This document shows, one piece after another, positions 17,298 to 37,462 of a stretch of DNA of 64,000 nucleotides (position 1 is the stretch's first letter; the number at the start of each line of letters is the position of its first letter). The translations under genes were made by a program, and so were the position numbers. The stretch is from a virus (taxonomy: Duplodnaviria > Heunggongvirae > Uroviricota > Caudoviricetes). Under the pieces are notes generated by a model, which worked only from the letters and a program-made list of their open reading frames with translations, did no database searches and was not told the DNA's origin. Location: the IMG/VR virus record IMGVR_UViG_3300045988_154391. One strand, 5' to 3'.

Positions 17298-17939
17298 TCA
17301 GAGATAATTACCTTTACCCGTCAATTCCCCTTGTGGTACTTGTTTTTGCGCCAGTGTTTGGGTTCCGCGAATTATGTTAATCAGAGGGCTTAGTAACGAT
17401 GGTTCCTGGCGTGCCTCAACTTCTCCAGCCATTGCCCTGATGTAGTCGGCGCTGGCAACGTTGTTGTATTCCGTCGCAAAGCAACATAGTAACGTCAGAA
17501 CATGCTCTGTCGTTATTTCGCTCCAGTTGATGTTGAAAAATTCATCGCCTTTTTTATCGTGTTCGGAATCGAAGATGCTTTGGTGGAGGATGTATTTGCC
17601 GGATTCCTTGCGCGGTAACTTGATTGCTTTCTGGCGTTCCAGCTCCTTATAAATCTGCATTGCCTCAATTAGTACCGGCCTGCCGTTCATGAAGGGATCG
17701 CGCAACCTTACACGCTGGCCAACTCGACCAGTAATAAAGCTGTTTTCCTCTTCCACCAGCACGATAAACCCCTTTTCCTCTTTTTCTCGCAATTCGCGCA
17801 GCAGATGGAGTTCCATATCGCGGCGGCGTTCAGGGTAGCTGGTCCGCTCAGCCATTATCAGCTCGTTATTGATCCATGCAGCAGTCATTGACGCCGGTTT
17901 GCCGACGCTCATCGAAACAACGCATATTTTCTTATCCAT
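17298..17939 (-). CDS. mat: Mat-like protein
   Basis: ATG at 17939 preceded by AGGGGG (track ORF extends to 18086); lies between ref and lxc as P1 mat does. By synteny only. Confidence 0.45.
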   Translation of the reverse strand: MDKKICVVSMSVGKPASMTAAWINNELIMAERTSYPERRRDMELHLLRELREKEEKGFIVLVEEENSFITGRVGQRVRLRDPFMNGRPVLIEAMQIYKELERQKAIKLPRKESGKYILHQSIFDSEHDKKGDEFFNINWSEITTEHVLTLLCCFATEYNNVASADYIRAMAGEVEARQEPSLLSPLINIIRGTQTLAQKQVPQGELTGKGNYL

Positions 17940-18128
17940 AGCGCCCCCTACAAAAAAGAAAAGCCACCAGCGGCGGCTTAGCAATACAACAGAAGGTAGC
18001 GCCCGGTACTCAGACTGTGCCGTCCATGGAATATTTGAAAAGGGATCCATCCGTACCGGGCGTGTGATGATTCTGACTGAAGTCACTTGTCAGTTGTCAA
18101 TCATTTATCATTAAAAATAATATATTTA

Positions 18129-18689
18129 TTAGTGCATGATGTTTGCCATCTCATAGGCGTCAGCCAGTAACTCCATCTCTGACTTGTTCAGCAGGGTGAA
18201 TTCTTTCTTGCCTCCAACCACACCATCGGCATGAACAGGGACCAGCCAGGGGTATTTTGCTCTTACTTCAGCCGGTGCTGCATGCTGGTGGTGCCATCTA
18301 CAAAGTGGCAATTGCTTTTTATGACAACCCGGCGCGGTACGACCGGCGATATGGTGCAGAGACACCTCATTAGATATTACTCCATGCATATAGCAGGCAA
18401 TGCAGGGGAGAGCGCCAAGAGCATTGGCGATGCGCCGTTCCTCCGCCGTTGGTGTTCTCCCCTTCAAGCCACGAGATTTTATTTTTACCGCGCTTTTCCG
18501 CGTTTTGCTGGCTGGTGGGCGCTCTTTCTGTTTAGCGATACGGCGGTCGATAGTATCCCGCATTTTCTGATATTGAGATTCTCGCCAGACCGGATCAGCC
18601 AACTTTTCCCGTTGCCGAGCGATCGCTCGTTCTCTGGCTGCCTTCTGCCACTTGCGGCACTGTTCAATTTTTTGTTCGATTGTTTTCAT
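18129..18689 (-). CDS. ref: Ref, recombination enhancement function (HNH endonuclease)
   Basis: 186-aa protein with HNH-type Cys/His motifs (CIACYMHG ... HH ... CRWHH); size and sequence match P1 Ref. Confidence 0.85.
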   Translation of the reverse strand: MKTIEQKIEQCRKWQKAARERAIARQREKLADPVWRESQYQKMRDTIDRRIAKQKERPPASKTRKSAVKIKSRGLKGRTPTAEERRIANALGALPCIACYMHGVISNEVSLHHIAGRTAPGCHKKQLPLCRWHHQHAAPAEVRAKYPWLVPVHADGVVGGKKEFTLLNKSEMELLADAYEMANIMH

Positions 18690-18695
18690 ATGGTC

Positions 18696-18721
18696 AAAAA
18701 AAAGGCGGCCTAATGGCCGCC
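18696..18721 (-). terminator. Terminator-like hairpin plus U8 in the ref leader
   Basis: Minus strand reads GGCGGCC-AUUA-GGCCGCC-UUUUUUUU, ending 6 nt before the ref ATG, downstream of the Op2-like operators. Confidence 0.45.
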
Positions 18722-18774
18722 TATGATGTCAAGGAGTTAAGTAATGGCACGTCTTCGTAGTTGACAAAAACTGC

Positions 18775-18804
18775 GGCTCAATTATAGCAATAAATTAGAG
18801 CAAT
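18775..18804 (-). promoter_or_regulatory. Overlapping C1 operators upstream of ref (Op2a/Op2b-like)
   Basis: Two overlapping cores ATTATAGCAAT (18781-18791) and ATTAGAGCAAT (18794-18804), about 90-110 nt upstream of ref. Confidence 0.7.
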
Positions 18805-18911
18805 TGTAGACATTTCATTTATCGATAATCACATTTTTTCTCTTCAGTGCCTGTGTGCTATACTCCTTCTTGATTGATTGGATGCGGAATACAAACCCGC
18901 TCTTTTGTGCA

Positions 18912-18938
18912 GCCTGGCTCCTTGCCAGGCTTTTTTTT
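18912..18938 (+). terminator. Plus-strand intrinsic terminator at the cra-like gene 3' end
   Basis: Stem GCCTGGC/GCCAGGC with loop TCCTT, followed by T8. Confidence 0.5.
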
Positions 18939-19248
18939 ATTTCATCATGGAAGCTGTTAACGCTTTGGACCTTGCTGAACTGATTGAAAGGGCATTGTTT
19001 ACCTTACCCAGGAGTTCGCCAAATTCCCCCATCACTCTAGTAAGCCCGCGCCGCGCTTCCTCCTCCGTTGCATTCATCACAAAATGTTCAGCACTCCGCA
19101 TGCTTTTAACGGGGAACGCAACAGATATCGAGTCGATATCAGGCATCCTATCGCTCAACTTTACGGTGACAATGACAGATGGTGACTGAATTTGAGAGCT
19201 TACAGACAGCACCACATATTTTCCGTCTATTTTGAATTCCTTCCGCAT
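18937..19248 (-). CDS. cra: Cra-like small protein downstream of cre
   Basis: 103-aa ORF 50 nt after the cre stop on the same strand, the position of P1 cra. Confidence 0.45.
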   Translation of the reverse strand: MRKEFKIDGKYVVLSVSSQIQSPSVIVTVKLSDRMPDIDSISVAFPVKSMRSAEHFVMNATEEEARRGLTRVMGEFGELLGKVNNALSISSARSKALTASMMK

Positions 19249-19264
19249 GTGTCACCATAAATAT

Positions 19265-19281
19265 CAAATAATTAGAGCAAT
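19265..19281 (-). promoter_or_regulatory. Degenerate C1-operator-like site between cre and cra-like gene
   Basis: CAAATAATTAGAGCAAT; ATTAGAGCAAT core conserved, three mismatches in the AT-rich arm. Confidence 0.4.
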
Positions 19282-19298
19282 CAAGCGCAAATGAACGG

Positions 19299-20330
19299 CT
19301 AATCGCCATCTTCCAGCAGGCGCACCATTGCCCCCGTTTCACTATCCAGATTACGGATATAGTTCATGACAATATTTACGTTGGTCCAGCCACCAGCTTG
19401 CATGATCTCCGGTATTGAAACTCCGGCGCGGGCCATATCTCGCGCGGCTCCGACACGGGCACTGTGTCCAGACCAAGCCAGGTACCTCTGGCCAGAGTCA
19501 TCCTTAGCCCCGTAAATCAATCGGTGAGTTGCTTCAAAAATCCCTTCCAGGGCGCGAGTTGATAGCTGGCTGGTGGATGATGGCGAGGCAACACCATTTT
19601 TTCTGACCCGGCAAAACAAGTAGTTATTCGGATCATCAGCCACACCAGAGACAGAAATCCATCGCTCGACCAGTTTAGTTACCCCCAGGCTAAGCGCCTT
19701 CTCTACACCTGCGGTGCTAACCAGCGTTTTCGTTCTGCCAATATGGATTAACATTCTCCCACCGTCAGTACGTGAGATATCTTTAACCCTGATCCTGGCA
19801 ATTTCGGCTATACGTAACAGGGTGTTATAAGCAATCCCCAGAAATGCCAGATTACGTATATCCTGGCAGCGATCGCTATTTTCCATGAGTGAACGAACCT
19901 GGTCGAAATCAGTGCGTTCGAACGCTAGTGCCTGTTTTGCACGTTCACCGGCATCAACGTTTTCTTTTCGGATCCGCCGCATGACCAGTGAAACAGCATT
20001 GCTGTCACTTGGTCGTGGCAGCCCGGACCGACGATGAAGCATGTTTAGCTGGCCCAAATGTTGCTGGATAGTTTTTACTGCCAGACCGCGCGCCTGAAGA
20101 TATAGAAGATAATCGCGAACATCTTCAGGTTCTGCGGGAAACCATTTCCGGTTATTCAACTTGCACCATGCCGCCCATGACCGGCAAACGGACAGAAGCA
20201 TTTTCCAGGTATGCTCAGAAAACGCCTGGCGATCCCTGAACATGTCCATCAGGTTCTTGCGAACCTCATCACTCGTTGCATCGACCGGTAATGCAGGCAA
20301 ATTTTGGTGTACGGTCAGTAAATTGGACAT
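19299..20330 (-). CDS. cre: Cre tyrosine recombinase
   Basis: 343-aa protein starting MSNLLTVHQNLPALPVDATSDEVRKNLMDMFRDRQAFSEHTWKMLLSVCRSWAAWCKLNNRKWFPAEPEDVRDYLLYLQARGL, essentially the P1 Cre sequence; loxP about 415 bp upstream. Confidence 0.97.
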   Translation of the reverse strand: MSNLLTVHQNLPALPVDATSDEVRKNLMDMFRDRQAFSEHTWKMLLSVCRSWAAWCKLNNRKWFPAEPEDVRDYLLYLQARGLAVKTIQQHLGQLNMLHRRSGLPRPSDSNAVSLVMRRIRKENVDAGERAKQALAFERTDFDQVRSLMENSDRCQDIRNLAFLGIAYNTLLRIAEIARIRVKDISRTDGGRMLIHIGRTKTLVSTAGVEKALSLGVTKLVERWISVSGVADDPNNYLFCRVRKNGVASPSSTSQLSTRALEGIFEATHRLIYGAKDDSGQRYLAWSGHSARVGAARDMARAGVSIPEIMQAGGWTNVNIVMNYIRNLDSETGAMVRLLEDGD

Positions 20331-21162: not shown

Positions 21163-21372
21163 ATGGCTTTCATTCAACCAACCATCGACGACGTTAGACA
21201 TTGCTCTAACGCTTTATCTGTAGACCCTGCCGAAACCGACGCTGCCCGCGCCATTGCTGAACACTACTCAAAGATATCCAATCAGGAGTACCGCATCACC
21301 CAAGACGACCTGGATGACCTCACTGACACAATCGAATATCTCATGGCAACTAACCAGTTAGACTCACAATAA
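21163..21372 (+). CDS. coi: Coi, C1 inactivator
   Basis: 69-aa ORF directly upstream of c1 on the same strand, as in P1 immC. Confidence 0.85.
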   Translation: MAFIQPTIDDVRHCSNALSVDPAETDAARAIAEHYSKISNQEYRITQDDLDDLTDTIEYLMATNQLDSQ

Positions 21373-21482: not shown

Positions 21483-22334
21483 ATGATAAATTATGTCTAC
21501 GGCGAACAACTGTACCAGGAGTTCGTCAGCTTCAGGGATCTCTTTCTAAAAAAAGCTGTTGCACGCGCCCAACACGTTGATACAGCCAGCGACGGTCGTC
21601 CTGTACGCCCGGTTGTCGTTCTACCGTTCAAAGAAACTGACAGCATTCAGGCTGAAATTGATAAATGGACTTTAATGGCGCGGGAACTGGAACAGTACCC
21701 AGACCTCAATATCCCAAAGACTATTTTATATCCAGTGCCTAACATCCTTCGCGGTGTGCGCAAGGTTACAACTTATCAGACAGAAGCTGTGAACAGCGTC
21801 AACATGACCGCTGGCCGCATTATTCATCTGATTGATAAGGACATTCGCATCCAAAAAAGCGCGGGGATCAATGAGCACAGTGCGAAATACATAGAGAACC
21901 TGGAAGCAACAAAAGAGCTAATGAGGCAGTACCCGGAGGATGAAAAATTCCGTATGCGCGTACACGGCTTTAGCGAAACAATGCTGCGCGTCCACTACAT
22001 TTCCAGTAGCCCTAACTACAATGATGGTAAATCAGTTAGTTACCATGTGCCACTGTGTGGCGTGTTTATCTGCGATGAAACTCTCCGTGATGGAATTATC
22101 ATCAACGGTGAATTCGAAAAAGCAAAATTTAGCCTTTATGACTCCATAGAACCGATCATCTGCGACCGCTGGCCGCAAGCAAAAATATATCGCCTGGCAG
22201 ATATTGAAAATGTAAAAAAACAAATTGCCATCACTCGCGAAGAGAAAAAGGTTAAGTCAGCCGCATCAGTTACGCGCAGCCGTAAAACCAAGAAGGGGCA
22301 GCCAGTAAACGACAACCCCGAAAGCGCGCAATAA
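21483..22334 (+). CDS. c1: C1 repressor
   Basis: 283-aa protein starting MINYVYGEQLYQEFVSFRDLFLKKAVARAQHVD, matching P1 C1; strong GGAGGAGG SD. Confidence 0.95.
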   Translation: MINYVYGEQLYQEFVSFRDLFLKKAVARAQHVDTASDGRPVRPVVVLPFKETDSIQAEIDKWTLMARELEQYPDLNIPKTILYPVPNILRGVRKVTTYQTEAVNSVNMTAGRIIHLIDKDIRIQKSAGINEHSAKYIENLEATKELMRQYPEDEKFRMRVHGFSETMLRVHYISSSPNYNDGKSVSYHVPLCGVFICDETLRDGIIINGEFEKAKFSLYDSIEPIICDRWPQAKIYRLADIENVKKQIAITREEKKVKSAASVTRSRKTKKGQPVNDNPESAQ

Positions 22335-22338
22335 ATTA

Positions 22339-22365
22339 TGCCCGGCATCAACCGGGCATTCTTCC
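22339..22365. terminator. Hairpin terminator between convergent c1 and antirepressor-like gene
   Basis: Stem TGCCCGG/CCGGGCA with T-rich flanks on both strands. Confidence 0.5.
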
Positions 22366-22366
22366 A

Positions 22367-23482
22367 TTATTCAGCTGCCACCGGTTTTAACAAGCCAGCA
22401 TCGAGCAGTTTACGCGTCAACCACTGCTGGCCTTTACCCGTTAATTGAGGCGTCAACCGTATCTGGTAGCCATCTTCATCATCCAGCACCACTTCTTTCA
22501 CCGTGAAATACCCCGCGTTGATGTACTGCTGGAACGGCACATTTTTACGTCCACCGGACGCTATCAGGATGCCGTTCTCCCGTAACCAGACAAACAGCGC
22601 GTTTTGCTTAAGTCCAACAACCTTTGCAAAATTCCCAATCAGGATCCCTTTAGCTACTGATACCCGGTCGGCAAAATCGACTTTAGGAGCGGCGGCCACC
22701 AGCTGCTGATTTAGCTGGTGGGCTTTCTGTTCCAGAAGCTGCTTTTGTTCAGCCAGTTCGGCAGCCAGGCGCAGAGCTTCTGGAAGCGTCTGGGGGATTG
22801 CAACCGGTTGCTGTTCTTTTTGCCGGAAGTAGCTGTCTTCCAGTTTTTCAAAGAATGCCCATGCCTGATCGGTTTCGAGCATTTTAGCGTGGCGGGCTGC
22901 GCCGCGTTCCGTCCAGAGGATGAGTGAGCGGGCTTTAGGAGAGATAGGATTTTGTGAGTTACTTAAAGTCACCCGCAAATTGTTCAAATCATCTCCAATA
23001 ACTTTATAGAAATGCTTGCCTTCACAAAAACGTTCAGCATTACGGGAAAAGTTCTTCTTGATGTTATCCGCATCTGTCCCATACCCCTTAGCAAGGATCT
23101 TAGTTGTCACTACACGCACTCCCTGCCACTCTAGAACGGGAATTTCATCCGGCTGACTTTGAACAACCACCAGTTCTGATTCCTGAACTAAAGGTGTATT
23201 AATTTTTTCAGATTTAACGTTAGTAGCTTTCATTCTGTGTGCCTCCTTGCGTGTTTCGGCTGCGACGGTTGCGTAATTCAGATGCCCCTGTTCGAGCAGG
23301 TATTCACGGATATCAGACAGCAGGATACGGTGAACAGCGTTCTTGTCCTTTCTCCGGTAAAGTTGTTTGGTGATCATGAAGTAGTTGGCAATAACGCCTG
23401 GTATATCCCTGGTACTGATACAGGCAGTGTGCTGTTCAATTGCCTCGATCATCTCTTCACGGGTGACTAATGACGTTCTCAT
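22367..23482 (-). CDS. Antirepressor-like protein (ORF6N-like N-terminal and KilA-C-like C-terminal domains), 371 aa
   Basis: ORF6N-like region (VVTTKILAKGYGTDADNIKKNFSRNAERFCEGKHFYKV ... SPKARSLILWTERGAARHAKML) and KilAC-like C-terminus (NFAKVVGLKQNALFVWLRENGIL ... YINAGYFTVKEV). Strong internal start at 23233 (AAGGAGG) is an alternative. Confidence 0.7.
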   Translation of the reverse strand: MRTSLVTREEMIEAIEQHTACISTRDIPGVIANYFMITKQLYRRKDKNAVHRILLSDIREYLLEQGHLNYATVAAETRKEAHRMKATNVKSEKINTPLVQESELVVVQSQPDEIPVLEWQGVRVVTTKILAKGYGTDADNIKKNFSRNAERFCEGKHFYKVIGDDLNNLRVTLSNSQNPISPKARSLILWTERGAARHAKMLETDQAWAFFEKLEDSYFRQKEQQPVAIPQTLPEALRLAAELAEQKQLLEQKAHQLNQQLVAAAPKVDFADRVSVAKGILIGNFAKVVGLKQNALFVWLRENGILIASGGRKNVPFQQYINAGYFTVKEVVLDDEDGYQIRLTPQLTGKGQQWLTRKLLDAGLLKPVAAE

Positions 23483-23700
23483 AGTCCCTCCTGAGCAGAA
23501 GCGTTAACAGGGAGGCACCAGTAACTGAGAGAATTGCGTGAATCAGTGGAAAAACGGGCAGAGAAAATACATGGGGCGTCAGGAAGCTGAGAGCGGGCCT
23601 CATCTTCTGTCGGTGCAATAACGAAGTGATAGTGACGTTTTTGGCAGGAGTAAAAGCGCCAGATAAATTCAGGATGAGTTGGGGTAGGGATAGTAGCCAT
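23479..23700 (-). CDS. Small ORF (73 aa) translationally coupled to the antirepressor-like gene
   Basis: ATG at 23700 preceded by AAGGAGG; its stop overlaps the downstream start as ATGA. Confidence 0.3.
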   Translation of the reverse strand: MATIPTPTHPEFIWRFYSCQKRHYHFVIAPTEDEARSQLPDAPCIFSARFSTDSRNSLSYWCLPVNASAQEGL

Positions 23701-24018
23701 ATTGGCAGCCTCCTTAGACGTTGGTATGTAACCACCGCAGAAGAGACCAATCTTGCTGGCGGTGGACTGTACGGAGTTGGCCTTACTGGCGTCCAAGGTA
23801 ACCAGCCTACCCGAAGGTAGCCCCATACAGCCCACCATTGTAGAGGTGTGCGTGTACGCCGATACAAAAAAAGACGCGAGCGGCGTCTGTATCGCCTTAG
23901 ACTTAAGCGGGAGGCCAATCCCGGCACCCGTTTTAATGAGGTGCCTGATAAGCATAAACCGAAAATGCCTCAAGGCGCAAGAGGTCAGGTTCAATGTAAC
24001 ATCGGCAGTTAAAAAACA

Positions 24019-24035
24019 CAATTTATTAGAGCAAA
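24019..24035 (-). promoter_or_regulatory. C1-operator-like site just downstream of pacB
   Basis: CAATTTATTAGAGCAAA, two mismatches, both terminal; lies upstream of the antirepressor-like operon. Confidence 0.5.
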
Positions 24036-24038
24036 TAT

Positions 24039-25523
24039 TCATTCATTAAGCCATGCCAGAGCTTCATCAACCTGCGCTTCGTCTTCGACGCTAAGCACTT
24101 CATCCTGGGGAACATAATCCGCCAGCATAGCGAAACAATATGTATCCCAATGGTCTGGTGAGTGCAGGTTGAGTTTTTTCTTCATATCCTCCTTACTCAT
24201 CACCTTCCATTGACCTGCGGAGTTAATCCCTACAGGGATTTTCGACGCTTCCTCAATAGTTTCATTACCCTTATCCAGTCTCATACGACCAGATTTTACG
24301 GCCTCTGCGGCTTGAACGTTGGCATAAGCACGTTTATCAAAGTACAGGCTCTTATCTTCACGGCTATGCATCTTTTTACCCCAGCGTATACGCTGTACGG
24401 TAATACCATAATACTCGTACATCAGATCCGCCGTTGCTTTACCCAGCCCATCACCGTCTATCGCTATGGTGATATTTGGAAATCGCTCAGGATTACATTC
24501 TGCGAAAATTTTGGCGGCAAGCTGCGTTTCTGTAACGTCTGTGTATTCCAGCATTCGATAGTTGATTACACGGCGTTTATTTCTCTGGCCGGACACCATC
24601 ATGATATTGATAACGGACTTATCCCGTCCCGTACCACCAGCAACGTCCACACATGCAAGCCAGCCCCATCCTTTGGCAATCTTGACTTTCCGCCGCGTCG
24701 CACGTTCAACCTCATCACGTCCAAGAAGGAAGCCATCCTGTGATTTAGGGAATAGTCCGCGTACCTTAATCATGTACATAGGGTTATCACGCCCGCCGTA
24801 CTCCGCCAGCTTCATTTTGATAAATGCTGGCGTTACCAGCGGTGATTCCTCACTGTTAAGCGTGATCGCCGTATAAACGCCATCAGGGTTACCAGGACGC
24901 TTGGCCAGTTTATGGTGAGTATCGTAGAAATAGCCGCTTGGGCGTGTAGGCTGTGACAGTAATAAGATGCGGTTATCCTGTCCGGTAAGAGCACCGGTGA
25001 TGATACCGAAAGCTCTATCACTGACACCGGAGGCTTCATCGATAATATACAGAAGATGATCTGCGTGTTCACCGGCGAGAGCTTCTTCACTTCCCAGACG
25101 AAAGCCCTTCGGTACTACAGTCCATACACCTTTACCAGTAACCTCATAGAAAGCGGTTTCTGTCAGAACAAAATAATCAGCAAGCCATGGAAAACGGCTG
25201 GTGGCAGTAGCCCAGTTTATCTTGATGTACTTGAATATACCGGTCATTACCTGCTGAATTTTGTTCGCAACGATAATGGCGCGGGCACCGGGATACATGA
25301 TTATGAACAACATGATCATGATAGAAGTCATGTCTGATTTCCCGGTACCGTGACCAGACGAAACAGATGTCTTGCTACCCTGTTCCTGCACAGACTCAAT
25401 AATCAGATCCTGCTGCCAGGTAGGTGTTTTGCCGAACAAAACATCAGCGGCAGCAATCCAGTCATAACGATATAGCGCCACCAGCTCGCGCCAACGTGGA
25501 TCCGTTACGCAACTTCTGGCCAT
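24039..25523 (-). CDS. pacB: Terminase large subunit PacB
   Basis: 494-aa protein with terminase ATPase/nuclease organisation; start overlaps the pacA stop. Confidence 0.9.
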
Positions 25524-26716
25524 TAATCATCATCCCCGTATAGCTTGCGGGTAACTTCTTCGTCTTCCTCCTCGTCTTCGTCCAGGTCTTGTTCCAGCCA
25601 TGGGTCGTTTGATACACCTTCAGTATCAACATCTCCATAACCGCCTGTATCAACGATATCGGCGATTTCTTCCCTACGCTGCTCAATCCACAATGCGGCA
25701 TCGGCGCGGCGGTTGGCGGCCCGTTCTCGCGCAACTTTGTCCAGATCTTCAAGAGAAGGGCCACCGACGGCTGTTTGCCTTTCCTCATCATCGGTATTGG
25801 TCTTAGGAGCACGCAGATCGGCTTTGATTTGCTCCAGCATCAGGGGCGGCACTTTTCCGCCATGCGCCTCGATGAATTCAGCTGCTTCCAGCACTGACCA
25901 GTTATTTTCACGCTTTCGTTCGTATGCCAGCTTAACAATGCCAGCTTGCCCCATAGATAAAGCGTGCTTTTCCGCCTCCCGGCTTTCTTTTCGATAGTTA
26001 TTCCGAATGCTGTAAATGGTGTTGATCAGGCTGCTTATCTGCGCGGAACAGCTGTTTAGCATGCTCGCGATACGATATTCAGGCGGAGTCCCTTCATCAT
26101 CGTCTTTTTGCTGATCGCGCATTTCCTGCACCAGACGAATACACGTATCCCTGGCGTTCTCCAGCATAAGGAGATGAGAAAGAGACTTTTCCAGAAGAGT
26201 GGTTTCCAGAACATCGGCCCCGGACCGACGCAACATAGCGCGCGCGGCCTTCCGCGCTTCAACGTTATCTATCAGGTAATCGCCAGCTTCGAATTCAAAG
26301 CGTTCACCATCATCATCCAGGGTGTCGCGTTCCAGGCGATCACGTAAGGTCCGGTGGGCGCGGGTGATCACGTCATGATCATCAGAACGATCATTTATGC
26401 GCTTATTTTGGCGCTTCGCATTCTCGACTGCGGCACTGACAACGGCATTAACCCTTTGTTTTTCCGCTATTTCAGCCGCAATGTGATCACCTGCATGTTG
26501 ATCATTAGAGTGATCAATGATCATGCTTTTTAGTGGCTTCCTGACTGGCTTATTTGGCTTGCGGCTGTCCGCTGTCCTGGTGTCTTCTTTGAAGGCACGG
26601 AGATAACGACGTGCAGTATTAGGGTTAAGATTAAACTCGGCGGCATACTGTGCGATGGTGTAACCACCATCTCGCGCCAGGCGAGCAAAATTCTTCTTGT
26701 GATCGTCCCAGGTCAC
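25523..26716 (-). CDS. pacA: Terminase small subunit PacA (contains pac site)
   Basis: 397-aa ORF with GTG start and acidic C-terminus; the TGATCA hexamer clusters of pac lie inside it. Confidence 0.9.
26365..26523. other. pac packaging site: seven TGATCA-type hexamers in two clusters
   Basis: Cluster 1: TGATCA at 26365-26370 and 26376-26381, CGATCA at 26388-26393. Cluster 2: TGATCA at 26484, 26499, 26511, 26518. Matches the described 3+4 architecture of P1 pac. Confidence 0.75.
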
Positions 26717-29271: not shown

Positions 29272-29661
29272 TTAAATAACCGGACAATCATCAAATTCCC
29301 CACTTCGGGCATCATTGATGACATGAGTGATCACACCAAAAACAGCATTACTGCCCGTGTATCCATCGTCATCTACTGGTAACGCCTCTTTCTTCCCGGT
29401 GCTTAAATCCTCCAGGTGCTGGCGCGGATACTTCCTGTATCTCTTTATGCGATATTCACCCTCCATAGCGCACACAAGCAGAGAACCATCAACCGGAGTA
29501 AGCGAGGAATCAACCACCAGCAAAGCACCCTGCAATATTCCCTCACGGTGATGGCTATCAGCTGCCCGCATGAAGTAGGTCGCTGAAGGATGTCTAATTA
29601 TCTGCTGATCAAGAGAAATTCGGCTTTCAACATAATCCGCCGCAGGAGAAGGGAAGCCCAT
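29272..29661 (-). CDS. humD: HumD, UmuD-like S24 peptidase
   Basis: 129-aa LexA/UmuD-like protein; LexA box immediately upstream. Confidence 0.85.
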   Translation of the reverse strand: MGFPSPAADYVESRISLDQQIIRHPSATYFMRAADSHHREGILQGALLVVDSSLTPVDGSLLVCAMEGEYRIKRYRKYPRQHLEDLSTGKKEALPVDDDGYTGSNAVFGVITHVINDARSGEFDDCPVI

Positions 29662-29679
29662 AGCGTTTTACCTCAATGA

Positions 29680-29699
29680 TACTGTTTATTCATACAGTA
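29680..29699. promoter_or_regulatory. LexA (SOS) box upstream of humD
   Basis: TACTGTTTATTCATACAGTA, a CTGT-N8-ACAG palindrome, 19 nt upstream of the humD start. Confidence 0.7.
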
Positions 29700-29784
29700 T
29701 ACATTGAAAAGGCATAGTTTGTGAAAGCGGGGTTTGTAGGCGCGCCACGCTGGGGGCTAATCACATTTCTCCCCCATCTTGCCG

Positions 29785-30036
29785 TTATTTTTTTGGTGCA
29801 TCCTCGTTCTGATACACCGGATCGCTCCCTTTTGGCAACTGGAGGCTTAACTGCCGATAGTGCCGTAACCGTTCCATGAAATAGGTGCGCAGGTTTTCCG
29901 GTTGCTCACGGGCCACCTGCTCTGCAATCACAGGTATATTCAGCCGTTCTTTGTAAGCAACGCCGCTGGCGGCAAGGTCTACGTTCACCTTGTCTCGCTC
30001 TTCCTGGCTTTTAGCTGCTATATTTCGATCTGACAC
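29785..30036 (-). CDS. hot: Hot, homolog of DNA polymerase III theta subunit
   Basis: [43 protein letters not shown] aligns with E. coli HolE; GTG start with GGAGG SD. Confidence 0.85.
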
Positions 30037-30403
30037 AAGAAACCTCCAGGAGTTAGTGGATCAGGCACATGCACAATAACGTTCTCAATGTTAGCCGTTC
30101 AATTCAGACAATCAGAGACTGCACCAGTGTGGTGGCATCAATCCCATTGCGGAACAGCATAGACGAACTGCAAATTCGTGTATTGAATCCGAATCAGGCT
30201 AATAAGCAATTGCGCTTTATTTTGACGCTGAAAAGTGAAACAGAGGGGATAAAGCACAGCGTAAAAGTGTTTTCTGAGGCCATTCTGCTTAATGGGAAGC
30301 TCCGGCATCTGGTAAGGCCAGAACGTCAATATCCTGACGTCCTGGCGCGTGAAAAAGACCTTCTTTCTGAAGTTCAGGATAGGGTGATCGATTTCGTCAA
30401 ATG

Positions 30404-30688
30404 CTATCCCCTGCATTGAGGGCAGGTGTTCCCTTCCGCAAAGTAGGGAAAATTGCTATCAAGTTCATCACACCATCTGCGATGGTCGTAGCACCAAAAC
30501 GCCTCCCACGGTGCACGGAAATACTTCATCCACCAGGACACTCGATCAGGTATATCTGCTGGTGGCAGTTCTTCTGGCAATAATTTGCCTGATAATTCCC
30601 TTTCCGCCCGCGACAGCATTTTTTTGAGGCTCGCGTTCTCTTTTTCAAGCTCATCTACGCGCACCTGTAATTCAGCTTTCGTTGGCAT
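30404..30688 (-). CDS. Hypothetical protein with coiled coil and C-terminal CxxC motif
   Basis: ATG at 30688 with GAGGTGG SD (track ORF extends to 30769). Confidence 0.45.
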   Translation of the reverse strand: MPTKAELQVRVDELEKENASLKKMLSRAERELSGKLLPEELPPADIPDRVSWWMKYFRAPWEAFWCYDHRRWCDELDSNFPYFAEGNTCPQCRG

Positions 30689-31610
30689 GGTCCACCTCAT
30701 GCTTTTCAGCCACCAGCGGCAATAAAGCCCTGGCCATCTTATGAACCAATAGTGCATCAATAATGCCAAGCGTATGCCCCGGCTTAATGTTTAATGCCGC
30801 CTCAAGGTGACACCTTTCCAGGTCACTTTTCTCGGCTTGTTTATGATGATCTGGTGTAATAACGTCGCCCAAAACACGGCTAATTCTTTCTCGTAATTGC
30901 TGGGTGCCAGCACACTTGATCGCTGTATCGTGGAGACGGTTAACCAGTTCGCGATAAACATGCGGCTTAATGCGGATACGTTCACCGGTGACGCCCTTTC
31001 CTGGCGCTGGCACCGAACTATCCGGAATATCCGGATAGTTGCCAGCCTCGTAAGCTACCCACAGCCAGTGCATGAATGTTTCAGTGGACACACAACCACA
31101 GTCCACATCGATTTTCCCGCGTTGCTGTTCCAGCCATTGCCCAAAATCCAACCTGTAAGTCTTACTTTCAAGTTCATCACCATTGAACTCGACTTTCTGC
31201 GACGCTATGAGAGCTGATTCGTATTGTTCGCGAGTGACAACTGACTGGTATTCATCGCTATCAAGGCCACCAATTGGAAGCTCAATCTCACAACAAAAAT
31301 TGCGCCCAAAGAAAGTGTCTTTTTTGTGGTCTGAGCCAAAAGCAAAAGTCGCGCATGGTGCCATTAAATTGACACTGGGTAGGTAACAATAACTCATTCC
31401 ATCAGGCCACCCGCCGCACTTAGGCAGCTCCTTCACTAACAAGTCGATAAACTTCATTTTTTTATCATCTTTGCAAGCCGCCAAAGCCATTTGGGCAAGT
31501 GCCAATACTTCATCTGCCGTATATCCAGCACCGTGACCATACATTTCGATACGGGAAATAATCTCTGATATACGCTCTTCAGTGATTCTGGTCATTTCTT
31601 TTTGCGCCAT
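30672..31610 (-). CDS. Hypothetical protein (312 aa)
   Basis: Long ORF in the co-directional accessory block; no motif recognised. Confidence 0.55.
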   Translation of the reverse strand: MAQKEMTRITEERISEIISRIEMYGHGAGYTADEVLALAQMALAACKDDKKMKFIDLLVKELPKCGGWPDGMSYCYLPSVNLMAPCATFAFGSDHKKDTFFGRNFCCEIELPIGGLDSDEYQSVVTREQYESALIASQKVEFNGDELESKTYRLDFGQWLEQQRGKIDVDCGCVSTETFMHWLWVAYEAGNYPDIPDSSVPAPGKGVTGERIRIKPHVYRELVNRLHDTAIKCAGTQQLRERISRVLGDVITPDHHKQAEKSDLERCHLEAALNIKPGHTLGIIDALLVHKMARALLPLVAEKHEVDHANES

Positions 31611-31966
31611 TTCTTTTCACATTCCTTAGTCCATTTTTCAATGTTCATTTTGGCAATATCAGTCATTCCATCACCTAAGAAATACTTTTTCCGGTACGTC
31701 TTGCACTTAAACCACACTACAACAGCCACCAGCCAGAAAATAAAAGGCCATACGGCAATACCAACTCCAGCCGCGATAAAGCCCAATATCCATAAATGAA
31801 GCTCTCCAACTTCTGTTTCCGGCAATATTCTTAAAGAATTAAACAGCAGGCTGAACGAATGGTCGTATGCATTGGCAGTATAAGACATGCAATCCATATA
31901 ATTAAAGTCATAGCCTGCGGCTGCCGCCCATAATGGGCGGTCAAGAAAATGTTTTAGTGTCATCAT
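31592..31966 (-). CDS. Predicted membrane protein (124 aa)
   Basis: Two hydrophobic segments and a Lys-rich C-terminus. Confidence 0.5.
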   Translation of the reverse strand: MMTLKHFLDRPLWAAAAGYDFNYMDCMSYTANAYDHSFSLLFNSLRILPETEVGELHLWILGFIAAGVGIAVWPFIFWLVAVVVWFKCKTYRKKYFLGDGMTDIAKMNIEKWTKECEKKWRKKK

Positions 31967-31972
31967 ATTAAT

Positions 31973-32266
31973 TTAAGGTTCAGACCAGTTATCTTCAATA
32001 GCAATGCTTAATCTTTGTAGCCATTCTGCTAATTTCAGCATTGCTTCTCTTTCGCTTAAACCACACGGAAAATCATCAAGCGATATTGTTGGCTTGAAGT
32101 TTCCCAAATTATCCATTTCAACGGTCAGATTTTGCTCCAGAACGGTATTTCTTACGCGGCTATTGTGCCGAAGCAAATATACTGAACGTGATTTATTGGT
32201 TTTGTGGTCGAACGTATATTCGGTAAGTATCATCTGACTTCCGCCATGATTATTACCGCGCCACAT
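31973..32266 (-). CDS. Hypothetical protein
   Basis: ORF in the accessory block; start ambiguous. Confidence 0.45.
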   Translation of the reverse strand: MWRGNNHGGSQMILTEYTFDHKTNKSRSVYLLRHNSRVRNTVLEQNLTVEMDNLGNFKPTISLDDFPCGLSEREAMLKLAEWLQRLSIAIEDNWSEP

Positions 32267-32289
32267 AATTACTCCGTGTTAATTGAAAT

Positions 32290-32571
32290 TTAGCTATTAA
32301 TCTTCACTTTTATCGCGTACACCTTTACCGGTTTATCACCGAAGTGTGGATGTGTGATTGTTTTTATTTCATATCCGTTATACGGGACGTCAATTCTGCG
32401 ACTGAAGTCTTCGCGCTTCGGATATCCCTTTGTGATAATCAGGCGGTCATACTCGCGGAACATAATTCGCTTATTCCAGTAGTCATTACACAGGCGATAC
32501 TCTTCCGTTTTCTCTCCGCGAATCATGGCATCGAAGTATTCACCTTTAACGGCAAGTTGCAGGTTAGCCAC
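32290..32571 (-). CDS. Small ASCH/PUA-like protein
   Basis: Motif pattern GEYFDAMIRGEKTEEYR ... YDRLIITKGYP resembles ASCH/DUF3850-type domains. Confidence 0.5.
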   Translation of the reverse strand: MANLQLAVKGEYFDAMIRGEKTEEYRLCNDYWNKRIMFREYDRLIITKGYPKREDFSRRIDVPYNGYEIKTITHPHFGDKPVKVYAIKVKINS

Positions 32572-32851
32572 GACCTTCCTCCTTTGGCTTGTGAATTTGT
32601 ATCGTCATGCCGCTTTGAGTGGTGACTACAACGACAGAACCAGGCTGAAGACTGTTAAGATTGAATGCTTCGTAAAACGAAGCCAAGGCCAGCGCTTTTT
32701 TATTCTTTCGGTTCCACCAACGCCATCCATTGCTACAGGCTACACTGACAATCCACTGTCCACTCCTGTAAGCCATATAAAACCAGATGAGCAAAACCTG
32801 AATGAATGCTATCCAGTCAATAATCGTATATTTCGCGAAGGAGACCATCAA
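32564..32851 (-). CDS. Small membrane protein, paralog A
   Basis: Shares the segment KKALALASFYEAFNLNSLQPGS with the 34449-34772 product (RQKALEAFYDAFELSRIEPGTT). Confidence 0.5.
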   Translation of the reverse strand: MMVSFAKYTIIDWIAFIQVLLIWFYMAYRSGQWIVSVACSNGWRWWNRKNKKALALASFYEAFNLNSLQPGSVVVVTTQSGMTIQIHKPKEEGRG

Positions 32852-33420
32852 TTAACCTCCTGCGGCGGTTCCGGTAGAGGCATCCAGTACAAGGCGTTCC
32901 CTAACCACGATAAAGTGCCGTCGCTCAACTCCACGTATTCCCCTTGTACCTGTCCTGCCATATACTCGCCGTGCTTTGAATAAATTAAAATCCAATCATC
33001 TTGAGCGGGCATTCGCTCACTACAGCTTATCCAACCATCCGGAGTTACCGGATAGTTGCCCGACAGCTCGTTCAACTTGTAAGTTTGGCTTACAGGTTCG
33101 GCTTCCAGTTCTGCAATGCGCTTCTCTGCAGCTTCCAGCTCAACGCGCAGCTTCCCTACCGTTAGCGCAATTTCCTCGTTCTCCTGGTCGCGGCGTTTGA
33201 TGTATTGCTGGTTTCTTTCCCGTTCATCCAGCAGCGCCAGCACGGTTTCTGGTCCGGTCAGAAATTTGAAGGCGTTGAGCGCATCAATATCCACACCGTA
33301 ATCCTTAAGTTCCTGTTCACTTAACAAATCATCATCAACTGGCAACATTAACAGGCGTTCCATTGCCGGAATTGCACGTTCTGCCGCCTCACGCAGTGCC
33401 TGATAGTTAATTTTGGTCAT
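32848..33420 (-). CDS. Ead/Ea22-like protein, paralog 1
   Basis: N-terminal NYQALREAAERAIP motif shared with the 34736-35611 product; central coiled coil (IAELEAE). Confidence 0.6.
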   Translation of the reverse strand: MTKINYQALREAAERAIPAMERLLMLPVDDDLLSEQELKDYGVDIDALNAFKFLTGPETVLALLDERERNQQYIKRRDQENEEIALTVGKLRVELEAAEKRIAELEAEPVSQTYKLNELSGNYPVTPDGWISCSERMPAQDDWILIYSKHGEYMAGQVQGEYVELSDGTLSWLGNALYWMPLPEPPQEVN

Positions 33421-33421
33421 A

Positions 33422-33721
33422 TCACATCCTCCTGAAGCCGTTGCATTTACGTAAAAAATCGCAGATATAGCCCTTCATTTTTTCGTGCCAATCTCGATCA
33501 TTCCCATTGCACCAACCATCAGGTGGAGTCCAGTTTTCTATCAGAGCAGCCATTTTCTTTGCTTTCGCCGGAGTAGCTGTTGCGGTATCGCAGTAATGAC
33601 GAGTGTCAACCAACGTATCCATACCATCGATATCAAGTACGCAAAACCATGTGTGATTCGGCATTTCAACAGATGGTATTTGTTGCCCACGTCGACGTTT
33701 ATCAATAAGACATACAGTCAC
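33422..33721 (-). CDS. Hypothetical Cys/Trp-rich protein (99 aa)
   Basis: ORF tightly packed between two Ead-like paralogs. Confidence 0.45.
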   Translation of the reverse strand: MTVCLIDKRRRGQQIPSVEMPNHTWFCVLDIDGMDTLVDTRHYCDTATATPAKAKKMAALIENWTPPDGWCNGNDRDWHEKMKGYICDFLRKCNGFRRM

Positions 33722-34452
33722 TGGTTGCCTCCTTTGCGAAGCTGGGCAGCAAAGTCAACTAACCACTCAGTCATTTCAACCTTCCCTACCAGGTCTGAAC
33801 CAGGGTGCATACAGCAATCACTCTGCGCCGCTTTGAAATCCTTATACTCATATTCTTGGGCCACCAGATTTTTTGCAGCTTCTATAGCAGCATCCACGCC
33901 CTGCGCCCGCACTTCAGCCAGGAAAGCATCGGTGGCTGGCATATTTCCTGTTGCCTTCATGGCCTCCAAAATAACCAGAACGCCATCTCGCCCAACCACC
34001 TCAGCGATAACCTCAGTGTTGTCGCCAACAACATCGCAGAATGCCTGAACTGCCTTACGAGCCAGCTCATTCTCCACTGCCAGCGCCGTGCGATTACCCT
34101 CCAGCTCTGCAATGCGCTGTTTTGCGGCATCCAGTTCAATCGACAATTTTTCCAACTGCTCTTGATGCTTCTTGTATTCCTGATATGCGTGCCAAGACTG
34201 ACCTTTGCGCACACTATCAGTGATATCAGTAATCTGTTCTGGTGTTAGCGTGGTCAGTGGCTGTGATGGGAAAATAAGCACTTTCCCGGAATCCCAATCA
34301 AAACCAGCGTGAATTGACTGAACCTCAACTGAAGGTGTTGAACCAATGCTGCCAGGCGAATGAACAACGATTGTTACATCCATATCGCGACGATGGCTGT
34401 GGTTGTTGGACAAAATACGATTCACCAACTCAGAAAATTTGGAAAATTTCAT
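33718..34452 (-). CDS. Ead/Ea22-like protein, paralog 2
   Basis: C-terminal ATDAFLAEVRAQGVDAAIEAAKN shared with paralog 3 (ATDAFLSEIRAEARNEGI); coiled coil IAELEGN. Confidence 0.6.
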   Translation of the reverse strand: MKFSKFSELVNRILSNNHSHRRDMDVTIVVHSPGSIGSTPSVEVQSIHAGFDWDSGKVLIFPSQPLTTLTPEQITDITDSVRKGQSWHAYQEYKKHQEQLEKLSIELDAAKQRIAELEGNRTALAVENELARKAVQAFCDVVGDNTEVIAEVVGRDGVLVILEAMKATGNMPATDAFLAEVRAQGVDAAIEAAKNLVAQEYEYKDFKAAQSDCCMHPGSDLVGKVEMTEWLVDFAAQLRKGGNQ

Positions 34453-34772
34453 GCTGATTCCCCTTTCTCTGCTCTCTCCTGTCGGAACATCACTATCATC
34501 AGGTCGCCTTTTGTCGCTATCCTGGCTGTTGTACCTGGTTCAATGCGGCTAAGCTCAAATGCGTCATAGAACGCTTCTAATGCCTTCTGGCGTAGTTCCT
34601 GTTTGCGCCGTTTTTTCCACTGTTTTAGGAAAATGGAACCCAGCCATCGCCATGTGCGGGACATGATGTAAAGCCAACCGAGAAGTGCCAGACCGGTATT
34701 TAGGAGCGTATCGATCGTTATTGTCGTGTCGATATTCACTGGCTGCTTCCTTTGCGAATCTGTTCCGCCCAT
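34449..34772 (-). CDS. Small membrane protein, paralog B
   Basis: Paralog of the 32564-32851 product; one hydrophobic helix. Confidence 0.5.
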   Translation of the reverse strand: MGGTDSQRKQPVNIDTTITIDTLLNTGLALLGWLYIMSRTWRWLGSIFLKQWKKRRKQELRQKALEAFYDAFELSRIEPGTTARIATKGDLMIVMFRQERAEKGESA

Positions 34773-35611
34773 TCTTCAAGGGATTTCTCCGCATATTCAC
34801 CAGACAGGCCATCAATCGGATGCGCTTCATTAGCCAACTCTTCTTTCGCTGACAAAATCATGCGTGTAACGTCGAAAACTTCACGCAAAGACTTATTGAT
34901 AAATCCGTGATTGAACGCAGCAGCAAGACGGCTGGCGGTATAGTTAATCCCCTCGTTGCGTGCTTCCGCACGAATTTCAGACAGGAAAGCATCGGTGGCT
35001 GGGGTTTCGACATTAGGTCGAAGCTCATAATCACAAACTCTTTCAATCCATGGTGATACTCTGTCGCATTTCCTCTTCTTGCGTTCACCGACCTTGGTTG
35101 CCTGCTGAATAATTACCCCCCAGCAAATGCTTTCGACCTCTTCGCTCCATCCATCGCAAGCATCGCCTCTATAGTCGTCAATTGCAGCCTCAGCAGCAGC
35201 GATAGCCTCCTCAGCAGTTTTGTGACACTCGAAACTAAATTCAGAGCCATATGAGAAATACATAGCCCCGGCCTTCAGCGCCGCATTCTCCGCTGCCAGC
35301 GCCGCGAGATTAGTCTCAAGCTCTGCAATTCGACACATAGCATCAATATTTGTGTCCTCCAGGCGCTTAATTTCACCAAGCAGCTCCAGTGCAACCTTTG
35401 GGTTGAACGCGGCAACATAACGAGCGTTGTTCTCTGCATTTTTCTGTCCATCAAAGCCGGTCCATTTGATAACGTCTTCACATCGTTCATCACCGGGCGT
35501 GTGCACCGCATAAGTACCAGTATCCGTCGAAATAAATGCGACCCATTCGTCTGGTGTTGCCTTTTCTGCCGCCTCACGCAGTACCTGATAGTCAATTGTC
35601 ATTCTCGCCAT
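34736..35611 (-). CDS. Ead/Ea22-like protein, paralog 3
   Basis: N-terminal DYQVLREAAEKATP and C-terminal ATDAFLSEIRAEA motifs; coiled coil IAELETN. Confidence 0.6.
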   Translation of the reverse strand: MARMTIDYQVLREAAEKATPDEWVAFISTDTGTYAVHTPGDERCEDVIKWTGFDGQKNAENNARYVAAFNPKVALELLGEIKRLEDTNIDAMCRIAELETNLAALAAENAALKAGAMYFSYGSEFSFECHKTAEEAIAAAEAAIDDYRGDACDGWSEEVESICWGVIIQQATKVGERKKRKCDRVSPWIERVCDYELRPNVETPATDAFLSEIRAEARNEGINYTASRLAAAFNHGFINKSLREVFDVTRMILSAKEELANEAHPIDGLSGEYAEKSLEEWAEQIRKGSSQ

Positions 35612-36243
35612 CCTTCACAGTTGTAATCACTACAGCCTTCAAAATCATATGGGCTGTACTGCCAGGTTATTTTTCCGCAATGCGGACAATTCCAACGCAC
35701 CTTCCCGCTTCGCGACTTCTTTCTTCTGTTTTGCTTTTTCAACCAGTCAGGCATGACCAAACCTGCGCCCTGAACCATTGTTCTGCGGTTAAAGTTATTG
35801 ATATTGAACGTCCGGCGCTTTGCTGCATCAGCAATGGAAAATGGCAACCAAACTATTCCTGGTTCGTTTTTGTTGGCGACGCTAAAGATGGTCGCTTTAC
35901 TGAAGTCATCTGTTGGCAATCCACCGTGTTGAAGCCAGTAAACATCGTTGCCGTTCCAGCTACCTTTTTTGTAGGCCACATACGCAGTGCAATCTGACTC
36001 AATCAGGCTTTCTGTAGGGATGTACTGGCAATCAACGTGCCACACAGCCATTGCATCCACGCTATCAGCGCAAACAGGCTGATCGATATCTCGTCCACAA
36101 TTCCAGGCTTTTTGGGCTGCTTCCAGCGTGTAAACATGAGCGCGATCGATATCAGAACTGTAACCATTGCCGTTATGGCAATGGAATGAGGCGTTATTAC
36201 CCACAGTTTCACGCAAGCACATCATGTAAAAGCGGTTATTCAC
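35599..36243 (-). CDS. Hypothetical protein with C-terminal zinc-ribbon (CPHCG ... C..C)
   Basis: 214-aa ORF in the accessory block. Confidence 0.55.
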   Translation of the reverse strand: MNNRFYMMCLRETVGNNASFHCHNGNGYSSDIDRAHVYTLEAAQKAWNCGRDIDQPVCADSVDAMAVWHVDCQYIPTESLIESDCTAYVAYKKGSWNGNDVYWLQHGGLPTDDFSKATIFSVANKNEPGIVWLPFSIADAAKRRTFNINNFNRRTMVQGAGLVMPDWLKKQNRRKKSRSGKVRWNCPHCGKITWQYSPYDFEGCSDYNCEGWRE

Positions 36244-36451
36244 TGGATGCCTCCCAGCAAATTTGTCTTATATAAGAACTGTTAACGCGCTTTACTTTCC
36301 CGTCGAACTCCAGTTTCTTTAGACGACGCAAAACGTATGCCGTTTTGAGTGTGCGATATTTATCCCTAAGCCAGTTGGTCACGACGTAAGTCATACAGCG
36401 CCCGTGTTCTTCCAACACCCGAACTATTTCTTCGTCGGTTGGCTTGCTCAT
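36236..36451 (-). CDS. Small hypothetical protein (71 aa)
   Basis: Overlapping-stop arrangement within the operon. Confidence 0.45.
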   Translation of the reverse strand: MSKPTDEEIVRVLEEHGRCMTYVVTNWLRDKYRTLKTAYVLRRLKKLEFDGKVKRVNSSYIRQICWEASSE

Positions 36452-36669
36452 TTTGTCGCTCCTTCAGCTTTCTCTACTTTCGCTGCCATGATTTCCAGCT
36501 TTTGTGCTGCCGATGCCGCTAACCTGTGAAATTCATCATCTGTTTCAACTGGAATTGGTACAAACCTGACACCAATTTGAGCAAGGCTATGCGCCATTTC
36601 GAGACTTGCTCTTAACTCTGCTGGGGATGCTTTATTCAGGCCGACTTCCTCACAAATAACTGATTGCAT
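36448..36669 (-). CDS. Small hypothetical protein (73 aa)
   Basis: Overlapping-stop arrangement within the operon. Confidence 0.45.
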   Translation of the reverse strand: MQSVICEEVGLNKASPAELRASLEMAHSLAQIGVRFVPIPVETDDEFHRLAASAAQKLEIMAAKVEKAEGATK

Positions 36670-36678
36670 ACGCTCGCC

Positions 36679-37284
36679 CTACTGAATACGCTCAAACTCG
36701 ATTACCCAAACCCAGGGATTAGCACTCCAGCTTTCTTCGCCGTAGATGGATTCCCACAGGCGCTGGAACGCAACCTTGGCCATTGCGAAATCCCCCTTGG
36801 GAGTAAGGAATGTTCCCGGGTGATCAGGAAGCAAACTTCCAGCAGGCGGAACGCCCTCATCCCTTGCATCGCATTCGCTGATATCGTTCAACCGCTCAAC
36901 GCGCACGTTGGTAATTTCCAGAAGAATGCGCGATGCCCAGCGCGGCATGTGAATTGATGGCGTCCACTTTTCTGATACTGGTTTATTACAAACCTCGACC
37001 GGAACCCGGTGCGTTTGTTCTGTCCAGGAGTTACGCACGCTTGCGCGATAAACCAGCGTTGCGACGTCCGTCGCTTTGCCATGTACCCGGTAGGTTTCGC
37101 GAACCCAAATACGATCGCCCGGTTGACCATATGGACAATGCTTGGCAAGCAACTCTGCGGCCACTGCCCGTCCATAGAATTTTTCTTCAACAATCCTGCG
37201 AGTCTGTGTTTTATTCCCGCCAAGAATTGCCCGGACCATCTCATCGTTAAAAATCATGCCGCGCTCTTTCACTTCGCCTTTCAT
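36679..37284 (-). CDS. ASCH-domain protein (201 aa)
   Basis: Pattern TQTRRIV ... GDRIWVRETY ... HMPRWASRILLEITNVRVERL is typical of ASCH domains. Confidence 0.6.
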   Translation of the reverse strand: MKGEVKERGMIFNDEMVRAILGGNKTQTRRIVEEKFYGRAVAAELLAKHCPYGQPGDRIWVRETYRVHGKATDVATLVYRASVRNSWTEQTHRVPVEVCNKPVSEKWTPSIHMPRWASRILLEITNVRVERLNDISECDARDEGVPPAGSLLPDHPGTFLTPKGDFAMAKVAFQRLWESIYGEESWSANPWVWVIEFERIQ

Positions 37285-37462
37285 GCATCCCCCTTACCCA
37301 TGTGCGACGATGCCGCCAAAAGTGATAGAGAACAGCCAGAAATAGATCGCGGCCATAATGATTTTGAATGCCGTGTTCATATTTTCATCTCCTGTGATTG
37401 ATTGGATACATGCCGCGCCTTGCGGCATGTTTTTATTTTCACTTTCTCTGTTTTAAAAATCA

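Follow-up and report, generated by a model that had tools for sequence, protein, structure and literature searches.

In phage P1, the convergent genes pacB and c1 are separated by a spacer of only 24 nucleotides (nt), whereas in IMG/VR virus record IMGVR_UViG_3300045988_154391 (Caudoviricetes) the same interval spans 1,704 base pairs (bp; 22335-24038), which raises the question of what fills it. We analyzed this record as a single stretch of 64,000 nt, hereafter the window; all coordinates refer to it, with the strand given in brackets as plus (+) or minus (-). The window genome is P1-like (Punavirus) and is oriented in reverse relative to the P1 map, and alignment to P1 shows divergence beginning precisely at the pacB and c1 stop codons. 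With a probability that we put at roughly 80%, the sequence between pacB and c1 is a second, functional immunity cassette of the immI type, paralogous to the c4-icd-ant1/ant2 operon of P1 and P7. A first-pass annotation of the window, made from the letters alone, had placed an antirepressor operon here, convergent with c1, at a position where P1 has no gene. The P1 spacer, the opposite strands of the ant-side genes (-) and c1 (+), and the homology of the encoded proteins to P1 Icd and Ant1 all agree with that description. Anatomy, homology, RNA structure and co-variation between the C4 antisense RNA and its targets were computed here; promoter use, C1 binding, RNA processing, binding of Ant to C1 and the biological role we infer.

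The largest gene of the cassette is an ant1 homologue encoding 371 residues (22367-23482, -), identified by Pfam and by alignment to P1 Ant1. Pfam placed an ORF6N domain at residues 116-201 (E-value 8.7e-19; 68 bits against a cut-off of 27.8) and an ANT/KilAC domain at residues 259-360 (E-value 5.9e-31; 107.4 bits against a cut-off of 25.3), matching the ORF6N-like and KilA-C-like domains that had been suspected in this protein. Overall identity to P1 Ant1 (347 residues) is 55%, and it is unevenly distributed: by manual count from the alignment, residues 1-100 are about two-thirds identical and residues 226-369 about 93% identical, and the central stretch of about 125 residues cannot be aligned. 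ORF6N occupies this center of the window protein, and the middle region of P1 Ant1 has no Pfam domain. Nested within the gene is an ant2-type frame of 288 residues (22367-23233, -), itself matched by Pfam, which starts at Met84; this methionine aligns with the Met84 that starts P1 Ant2 (264 residues), and AAGGAGG (23242-23248) lies 8 nt upstream of its codon. The preceding gene is an icd homologue of 73 codons (23479-23700, -), with the Shine-Dalgarno sequence AAGGAGG (23709-23715, -) 8 nt upstream of its ATG. Its product shares 80% identity with P1 Icd across 66 residues (E-value 3e-41) and carries the RefSeq name "host cell division inhibitor Icd-like protein." The icd stop overlaps the ant start in the tetranucleotide ATGA (23479-23482), so that the small upstream open reading frame (ORF) with a stop-start overlap described earlier is indeed present, the actual gene being this 73-codon ORF. 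No reading frame or Shine-Dalgarno sequence of the cassette is disrupted, and the ATGA coupling is preserved.

Between the C1-operator-like site and icd, we identified a C4 antisense RNA gene (23755-23842, -), matched over its full length by Rfam RF01695 at 75.9 bits against a gathering score of 45. Its fold has a minimum free energy of -41.6 kcal/mol (z -3.5) and leaves 2 recognition segments exposed, the unpaired b' loop UACCUUGGAC (23791-23800, -) and the single-stranded a' linker AAGGCCAA (23777-23784, -). Complementarity and co-variation define a C4 target region in the icd-ant messenger RNA (mRNA; 23709-23750, -), comprising a2 (TTGGTCT; 23744-23750, -), the complement of a', and b2 (GTCTAAGG; 23712-23719, -), the complement of b', which extends into the icd Shine-Dalgarno sequence and, in every specificity type described below, stops 11 nt short of the icd ATG.

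The other 2 target sites lie in an IsrK/c4-a1b1-type leader RNA (23867-23944, -), recognized by Rfam, by its fold and by its complementarity to C4. The leader scores 60.8 bits as isrK (RF01394; gathering score 50; model positions 1-77), with a weak c4-a1b1 match of 20.5 bits at the same place, and the P1 leader scores as c4-a1b1 at the equivalent relative position. Within it, a1 (TTGGCCT; 23912-23918, -) occupies the loop of a hairpin, b1 (GTCTAAGG; 23895-23902, -) is single-stranded, and an intrinsic terminator hairpin (23872-23888, -) followed by a run of seven T forms a terminator-like site. Thus, a' is complementary to a1 and a2, and b' to b1 and b2, over 7-8 bp at each of the four sites, whose positions are conserved, and the P1 annotation marks equivalent sites as C4 targets. 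Whole-molecule and segment RNAduplex energies for C4 against its flanks were uninformative, because intramolecular structure is ignored and short duplexes are lost in noise, and pairing between C4 and its targets was assessed instead by contiguous-complement searches and co-variation.

Variation among related loci supplied the strongest evidence for the antisense circuit. Scanning IMG/VR with Icd yielded 79 loci (labeled L plus a number), and five a'/b' combinations were found among those at the pacB-c1 position: the window type AGGCCAA/CCTTGGAC, with 27 sequences including the window; the type of phage RCS47, GTCTCAA/CCTTTGAC; and GTTCCAA/CCTTTGAC, GTTCCAA/CCTTTTGC and GTCTCAA/CCTTTTGC. P1-type leaders accompany a further seven combinations, drawn from two a' alleles and five b' alleles. 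In every one of these 12 specificity types a1, a2 and b2 match the C4 segments, and b1 does so in all except L077, a type with a single locus. The RNA structure is also maintained: between window-type and RCS47-type C4, 27 of 27 stem pairs are kept, 9 of them with compensatory double changes, a level of conservation reached by none of 500 shuffles and collapsing in slid controls. A MAFFT alignment took in 13 C4 variants, and because it put the P1-type stems out of register, pair counting was restricted to six sequences of the window and RCS47 types.

The Ant proteins of these loci vary in a different place. The center of the gene (window 22807-23182, residues ~100-225) is a mosaic hotspot among loci L005-L083; at the pacB-c1 locus the ORF6N variants are 64-100% identical, L005 and L038 carry a P1-type center, and the N- and C-terminal parts are 87-100% identical.

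At the upstream end of the cassette, a C1-operator-like 17-mer, TTTGCTCTAATAAATTG (24019-24035, -), starts 3 nt past the pacB stop codon. It differs from the C1 operator consensus ATTGCTCTAATAAATTT at 2 positions and aligns with P1 Oc4 (Op51), AATGCTCTAATAAATTT, of which it is the positional homologue. Sites with 3 or fewer mismatches number 16 in the window against 0.39 expected from shuffles, and an equivalent operator is found ~197-219 nt upstream of C4, a fixed distance, in all parsable homologous loci except L077. The putative operator noted in the first-pass annotation therefore appears well founded, and C1, whose gene lies on the far side of the cassette (21483-22334, +) and whose product is 99% identical to P1 C1, is presumed both to bind it and to be the target of the antirepressor. 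The sixteen operator-like sites are spread over 5976-57640 of the window and include a perfect match to the consensus (53778-53794) that overlaps another such site on the opposite strand (53767-53783). Two candidate promoters were assigned from sequence and alignment to P1. The first, TTGTGT-17 nt-TACATT (23993-24021, -), overlaps the putative operator and is the positional counterpart of P1 P2c4/P51a; the second, TTGAGG-17 nt-TATCAG (23945-23973, -), aligns with P1 P1c4/P51b (TTGACC-17-TATAGT) and has an alternative -10 element, TATGCT, at 23951-23956.

Because the order and spacing of these parts match those of the annotated P1 immI operon, we regard the locus as a complete immI-type cassette at a second site. 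As in P1 and P7, Oc4/Op51, P51a/b, a1 b1, c4, a2 b2, icd and ant1/ant2 follow one another in the same order at near-equal spacing, with the operator ~200 nt upstream of C4, b2 lying over the icd ribosome site, a 73-residue Icd, ATGA coupling to ant, and nested frames beginning at residues 1 and 84. The differences concern position and detail. The window cassette lies between pacB and c1, beside immC, and not between sim and kilA, the position of canonical immI; its leader scores as isrK rather than c4-a1b1; its a' and b' are unlike those of every canonical type seen; its Ant has an ORF6N center; and its operon ends at a hairpin facing c1.

Canonical immI was sought inside the 64-kilobase (kb) window and is absent from it; there is a single C4 match, and P1 immI DNA matches the cassette only. 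By synteny, the canonical locus of this genome would lie beyond coordinate 64000. In RCS47, vB_EcoM-673R5, JL22 and plasmid unnamed2 of Escherichia coli CH427, the last being the closest complete relative (99.6% identity over the cassette), both canonical immI beside kilA and the pacB-c1 cassette are present. The pacB-c1 cassette is a duplicate and not a relocated immI, and since the canonical copy exists separately in relatives, it is a paralogue rather than immI itself. In 673R5, RCS47 and CH427, the C4 RNAs of the canonical and pacB-c1 copies differ in both a' and b', cognate pairing extends over 7-9 bp against at most 6 bp, mostly with G.U pairs, for non-cognate combinations, and each C4 matches its own targets only. 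Further, none of the pacB-c1 specificity types equals a canonical immI C4 type seen. As a' and b' differ from those of canonical immI within the same genomes, the two cassettes would be orthogonal.

In the P1 model, C1 represses the promoter that overlaps the operator, and C4 continues to be made in the lysogen from a second promoter. The icd ribosome site is blocked by C4, as is Ant synthesis through translational coupling; in the absence of cognate C4, C1 is inactivated by Ant1 and Ant2. In the window cassette, transcription would begin just downstream of the C1 operator, with C1 shutting the operator-overlapping promoter and a weak second promoter probably staying on in the lysogen to keep C4 supplied. 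The transcript would first yield the IsrK/a1b1-type leader, ending at the intrinsic terminator, and read-through past this point would give the C4 precursor and the icd-ant mRNA. Processed C4 would then pair through a' and b' with a2 and b2, covering the icd ribosome site so that no Icd is made; with ant translation dependent on that of icd via the ATGA overlap, synthesis of both Ant1 and Ant2 would fail as well. Where C4 is missing or outcompeted, Ant would be made, bind C1 and lift repression; the Ant1 and Ant2 homologues are presumed to bind and inactivate C1, given the homology of their N- and C-terminal parts to P1 Ant1 and the P1-type C1 encoded by the genome. Such release might follow entry of the phage into a cell in which the resident prophage has no C4 of this type or, alternatively, titration of C4 by the a1/b1 sites of the leader. 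With orthogonal cassettes, the phage would gain a second, independent heteroimmunity specificity.

Several observations count against a functional second immI-type cassette. Each of the b'-b1, b'-b2 and a'-a2 duplexes of the window type contains a G.U wobble, and because of these, repression could be weaker in this type than in others. The promoters are the weakest link of the model: in a consensus scan of the minus strand of the leader no promoter passed, so that the assignments derive solely from alignment with annotated P1 promoters, and the homologue of P51b, the constitutive promoter, carries a poor -10 (TATCAG). Canonical immI of the window genome lies outside the window, and the co-occurrence of the 2 cassettes is therefore shown in close relatives only. 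Finally, Ant and P1 Ant1 are unlike in their central third, and the target of Ant could therefore differ as well.

This last point leads to an alternative in which the regulation is the same and the output is another: Ant would have a target other than C1, or Icd would be the main payload, and the cassette would serve inter-element warfare or host manipulation in place of P1 immunity. Ant might be directed at the repressor of a different resident prophage or, like P1 KilA, at a host target, and Icd might block cell division. The central 125 residues show no relationship to those of P1 Ant1, copies at the same locus range from 64% to 100% identity there, with a P1-type center in a few of them, and KilAC proteins, which share their domain with P1 KilA, have several reported roles. 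One of them, the KilAC-domain protein AnrP of Gifsy-1, induces antQ (PMC4825925). On the other hand, the N-terminal 100 and C-terminal 144 residues remain near those of P1 Ant1 and Ant2 with the nested Ant2 start kept, the co-resident C1 is nearly the same protein as P1 C1 (99% identity), and the C1 operator of the cassette ties it to the C1 regulon. We consider a different output unlikely.

Less credible still is an antirepressor operon in which C1, bound at 24019-24035, is the direct and principal repressor and antisense RNA plays no part, which would make it a new immunity layer. Direct C1 control adding an immunity layer beside Coi had been the proposal of the first-pass annotation, and the C1-operator-like site on which it was built stands: it is present, conserved and overlaps a plausible -35 element. 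Between this operator and icd, however, lie a full-length, co-varying C4 gene and four target sites, and in P1, C4 is the main regulator of this arrangement, the action of C1 being confined to one of the two promoters. With C4 and the leader in place, the operon is a paralogue of the known immI type and not a new layer. The earlier annotation would also have yielded had the same gene been characterized in P1, and this is half the case, the homologues characterized there belonging to a different locus that has a different antisense specificity. A decaying immI duplicate with no present function, as might be suggested by a paralogue standing alongside a canonical copy and by G.U wobbles in three of the four window-type duplexes, we hold to be the least plausible of all, given that reading frames, Shine-Dalgarno sequences and ATGA coupling are intact, compensatory changes keep the RNA stems, targets track C4 segments in five types, and the cassette is widely retained.

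The preferred reading, a second immI-type cassette, can be set beside other regulatory RNA and immunity systems. In the isrK-orf45(STnc1160)-anrP operon of the Salmonella prophage Gifsy-1, as in the window, an isrK leader carries an intrinsic terminator that has to be passed before a stable RNA is reached, processed in Gifsy-1 and presumably so in the window, and a small upstream ORF is translationally coupled to an antirepressor-like gene (PMC4825925). In contrast, the small ORF of the window encodes a 73-residue homologue of Icd and is not orf45, and the window has a C1 operator. The short IsrK RNA of Gifsy-1, which ends at its own terminator, works in trans, switching on translation of the antirepressor from the read-through mRNA; this trans-activation and the binding of Hfq are known from Gifsy-1 only (PMC4825925). 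A sponge role for the a1/b1 leader, similar to the action of IsrK, is possible by analogy. The SeqA RNA of P4 has been called a structural homologue of IsrK (PMC4825925). P4 immunity resembles the window system in that a processed RNA from an untranslated leader (CI) pairs with sites up- and downstream of itself (seqA and seqC), but P4 CI prematurely terminates transcription of replication genes, and P4 has neither an icd-ant payload nor a C1 operator. Coi, the second inactivator of C1 within immC, is likewise expected to inactivate C1, as is the window Ant, and both genes adjoin c1 (coi, 21163-21372, +); Coi, however, is a protein of 69 residues without homology to Ant and is controlled by C1 operators only, without antisense RNA.

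Rfam isrK (RF01394) and c4-a1b1 (RF03163) match one positional element in these loci (window 23867-23957, -; L003 4454-4506, -), and the 2 families appear to describe a single element filed twice. The same region is crossed by an ORF of 187 codons (23479-24042, -), with a Pfam Phage_ASH match and the RefSeq name "ash family protein." We rejected this ORF as a gene: in all RCS47-type copies a stop lies 6 codons upstream of the icd ATG, its open length varies within the window type, and its substitutions track RNA pairing. The frame corresponds to the leader and C4 RNA read as if it were protein and lacks conservation as an ORF, and the Phage_ASH match may reflect conserved RNA sequence instead of protein.

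At least 80% of the cassette was present in 264 of 5,426 complete E. coli genomes and in 268 PLSDB plasmids. It is thus common in P1-like plasmids and already annotated, the large gene being called "ant" in phage RCS47 and the RefSeq names being KilAC antirepressor and Icd-like protein, and the parts and logic of the system were worked out in the 1990s. The pacB-c1 cassette has been mentioned without analysis, with reference to RCS47, by Venturini et al. 2019 (PMC6906374), and a D6-like plasmid has been reported to contain a second c4-icd region (PMC6799933). In a literature search that did not extend to the RCS47 description (PMC4249366) and the Gilcrease-Casjens D6 paper, either of which may discuss the cassette, we found no paper identifying the C4 gene of the cassette, its targets or its types. 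What is new here is that the cassette is a complete immI unit whose antisense code is its own and polymorphic, together with its predicted orthogonality to the canonical copy within the same genomes and the extra copies at other backbone sites in relatives.

A broader reading, which we put forward tentatively and think somewhat less likely true than false, is a combinatorial, multi-locus heteroimmunity with up to four c4-icd-ant cassettes per backbone (immI, pacB-c1, the ref site and a gap between tail genes) and codes built from shuffled a and b alleles. If so, the C4 of each cassette would be a shield, silencing incoming phages with the same code, and Ant a weapon, derepressing resident prophages that lack that C4, which would drive the diversification of cassettes and their spread as mobile units; the IsrK-type leader would be an anti-antisense sponge setting the induction threshold. 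P1-like phage-plasmids often carry resistance genes in E. coli and Salmonella, and immunity systems decide whether two of them coexist or one displaces the other. About 5% of complete E. coli genomes carry a second antisense/antirepressor cassette with a specificity distinct from canonical immI, and if it is functional, the single-immI picture from P1 and P7 would be insufficient for predicting the immunity of such phage-plasmids. The alleles of C4 segments and targets found in nature also provide a ready set of orthogonal antisense-target pairs. The interest of the cassette for phage-plasmid competition is moderate, and it involves no new kind of mechanism.

At the downstream end of the operon, the stop codons of c1 and ant are 32 nt apart, and between them lies a hairpin, ATGCCCGG/CCGGGCAT (22338-22359), of 9 bp, six of them G-C pairs. 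It appears in the centroid fold on both strands (z about -2.7) and is terminator-like on the minus (ant) strand only. We regard it as a candidate terminator for ant and possibly for c1; of the shared hairpin terminator proposed earlier, the hairpin common to the ends of both genes was found, with terminator character on the ant side alone. That ant read-through might converge over c1 is speculation.

The surrounding genes include cre (19299-20330, -) on the c1 side and, beyond the upstream boundary of the cassette, pacB (24039-25523, -) and pacA (25523-26716, -). Farther along, 8 kb of the window (29275-37290) has no megablast match in the CH427 plasmid, which has a type I restriction-modification system at the corresponding place. 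Three transfer RNA genes (51040-51112, 52959-53031 and 53037-53109, all -) are present, as in the P1 transfer RNA region.

Additional c4-icd-ant cassettes were found at other backbone positions. In L073, L079, L068, L071 and L078, a further cassette with a P1-type leader replaces or adjoins the ref region, with ref either replaced or the cassette placed beside a neighboring gene of 262 codons. The flanks of these cassettes match window 17302-18137 and 18698-20131, and the window itself keeps ref (18129-18689). In L082 and L083, the cassette site corresponds to a 45-nt gap in the window (48068-48114) between convergent ORFs of 210 and 324 codons, the former belonging to the tail/baseplate region. 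IMG/VR contig 2698536372_000019 carries three cassettes within 22 kb.

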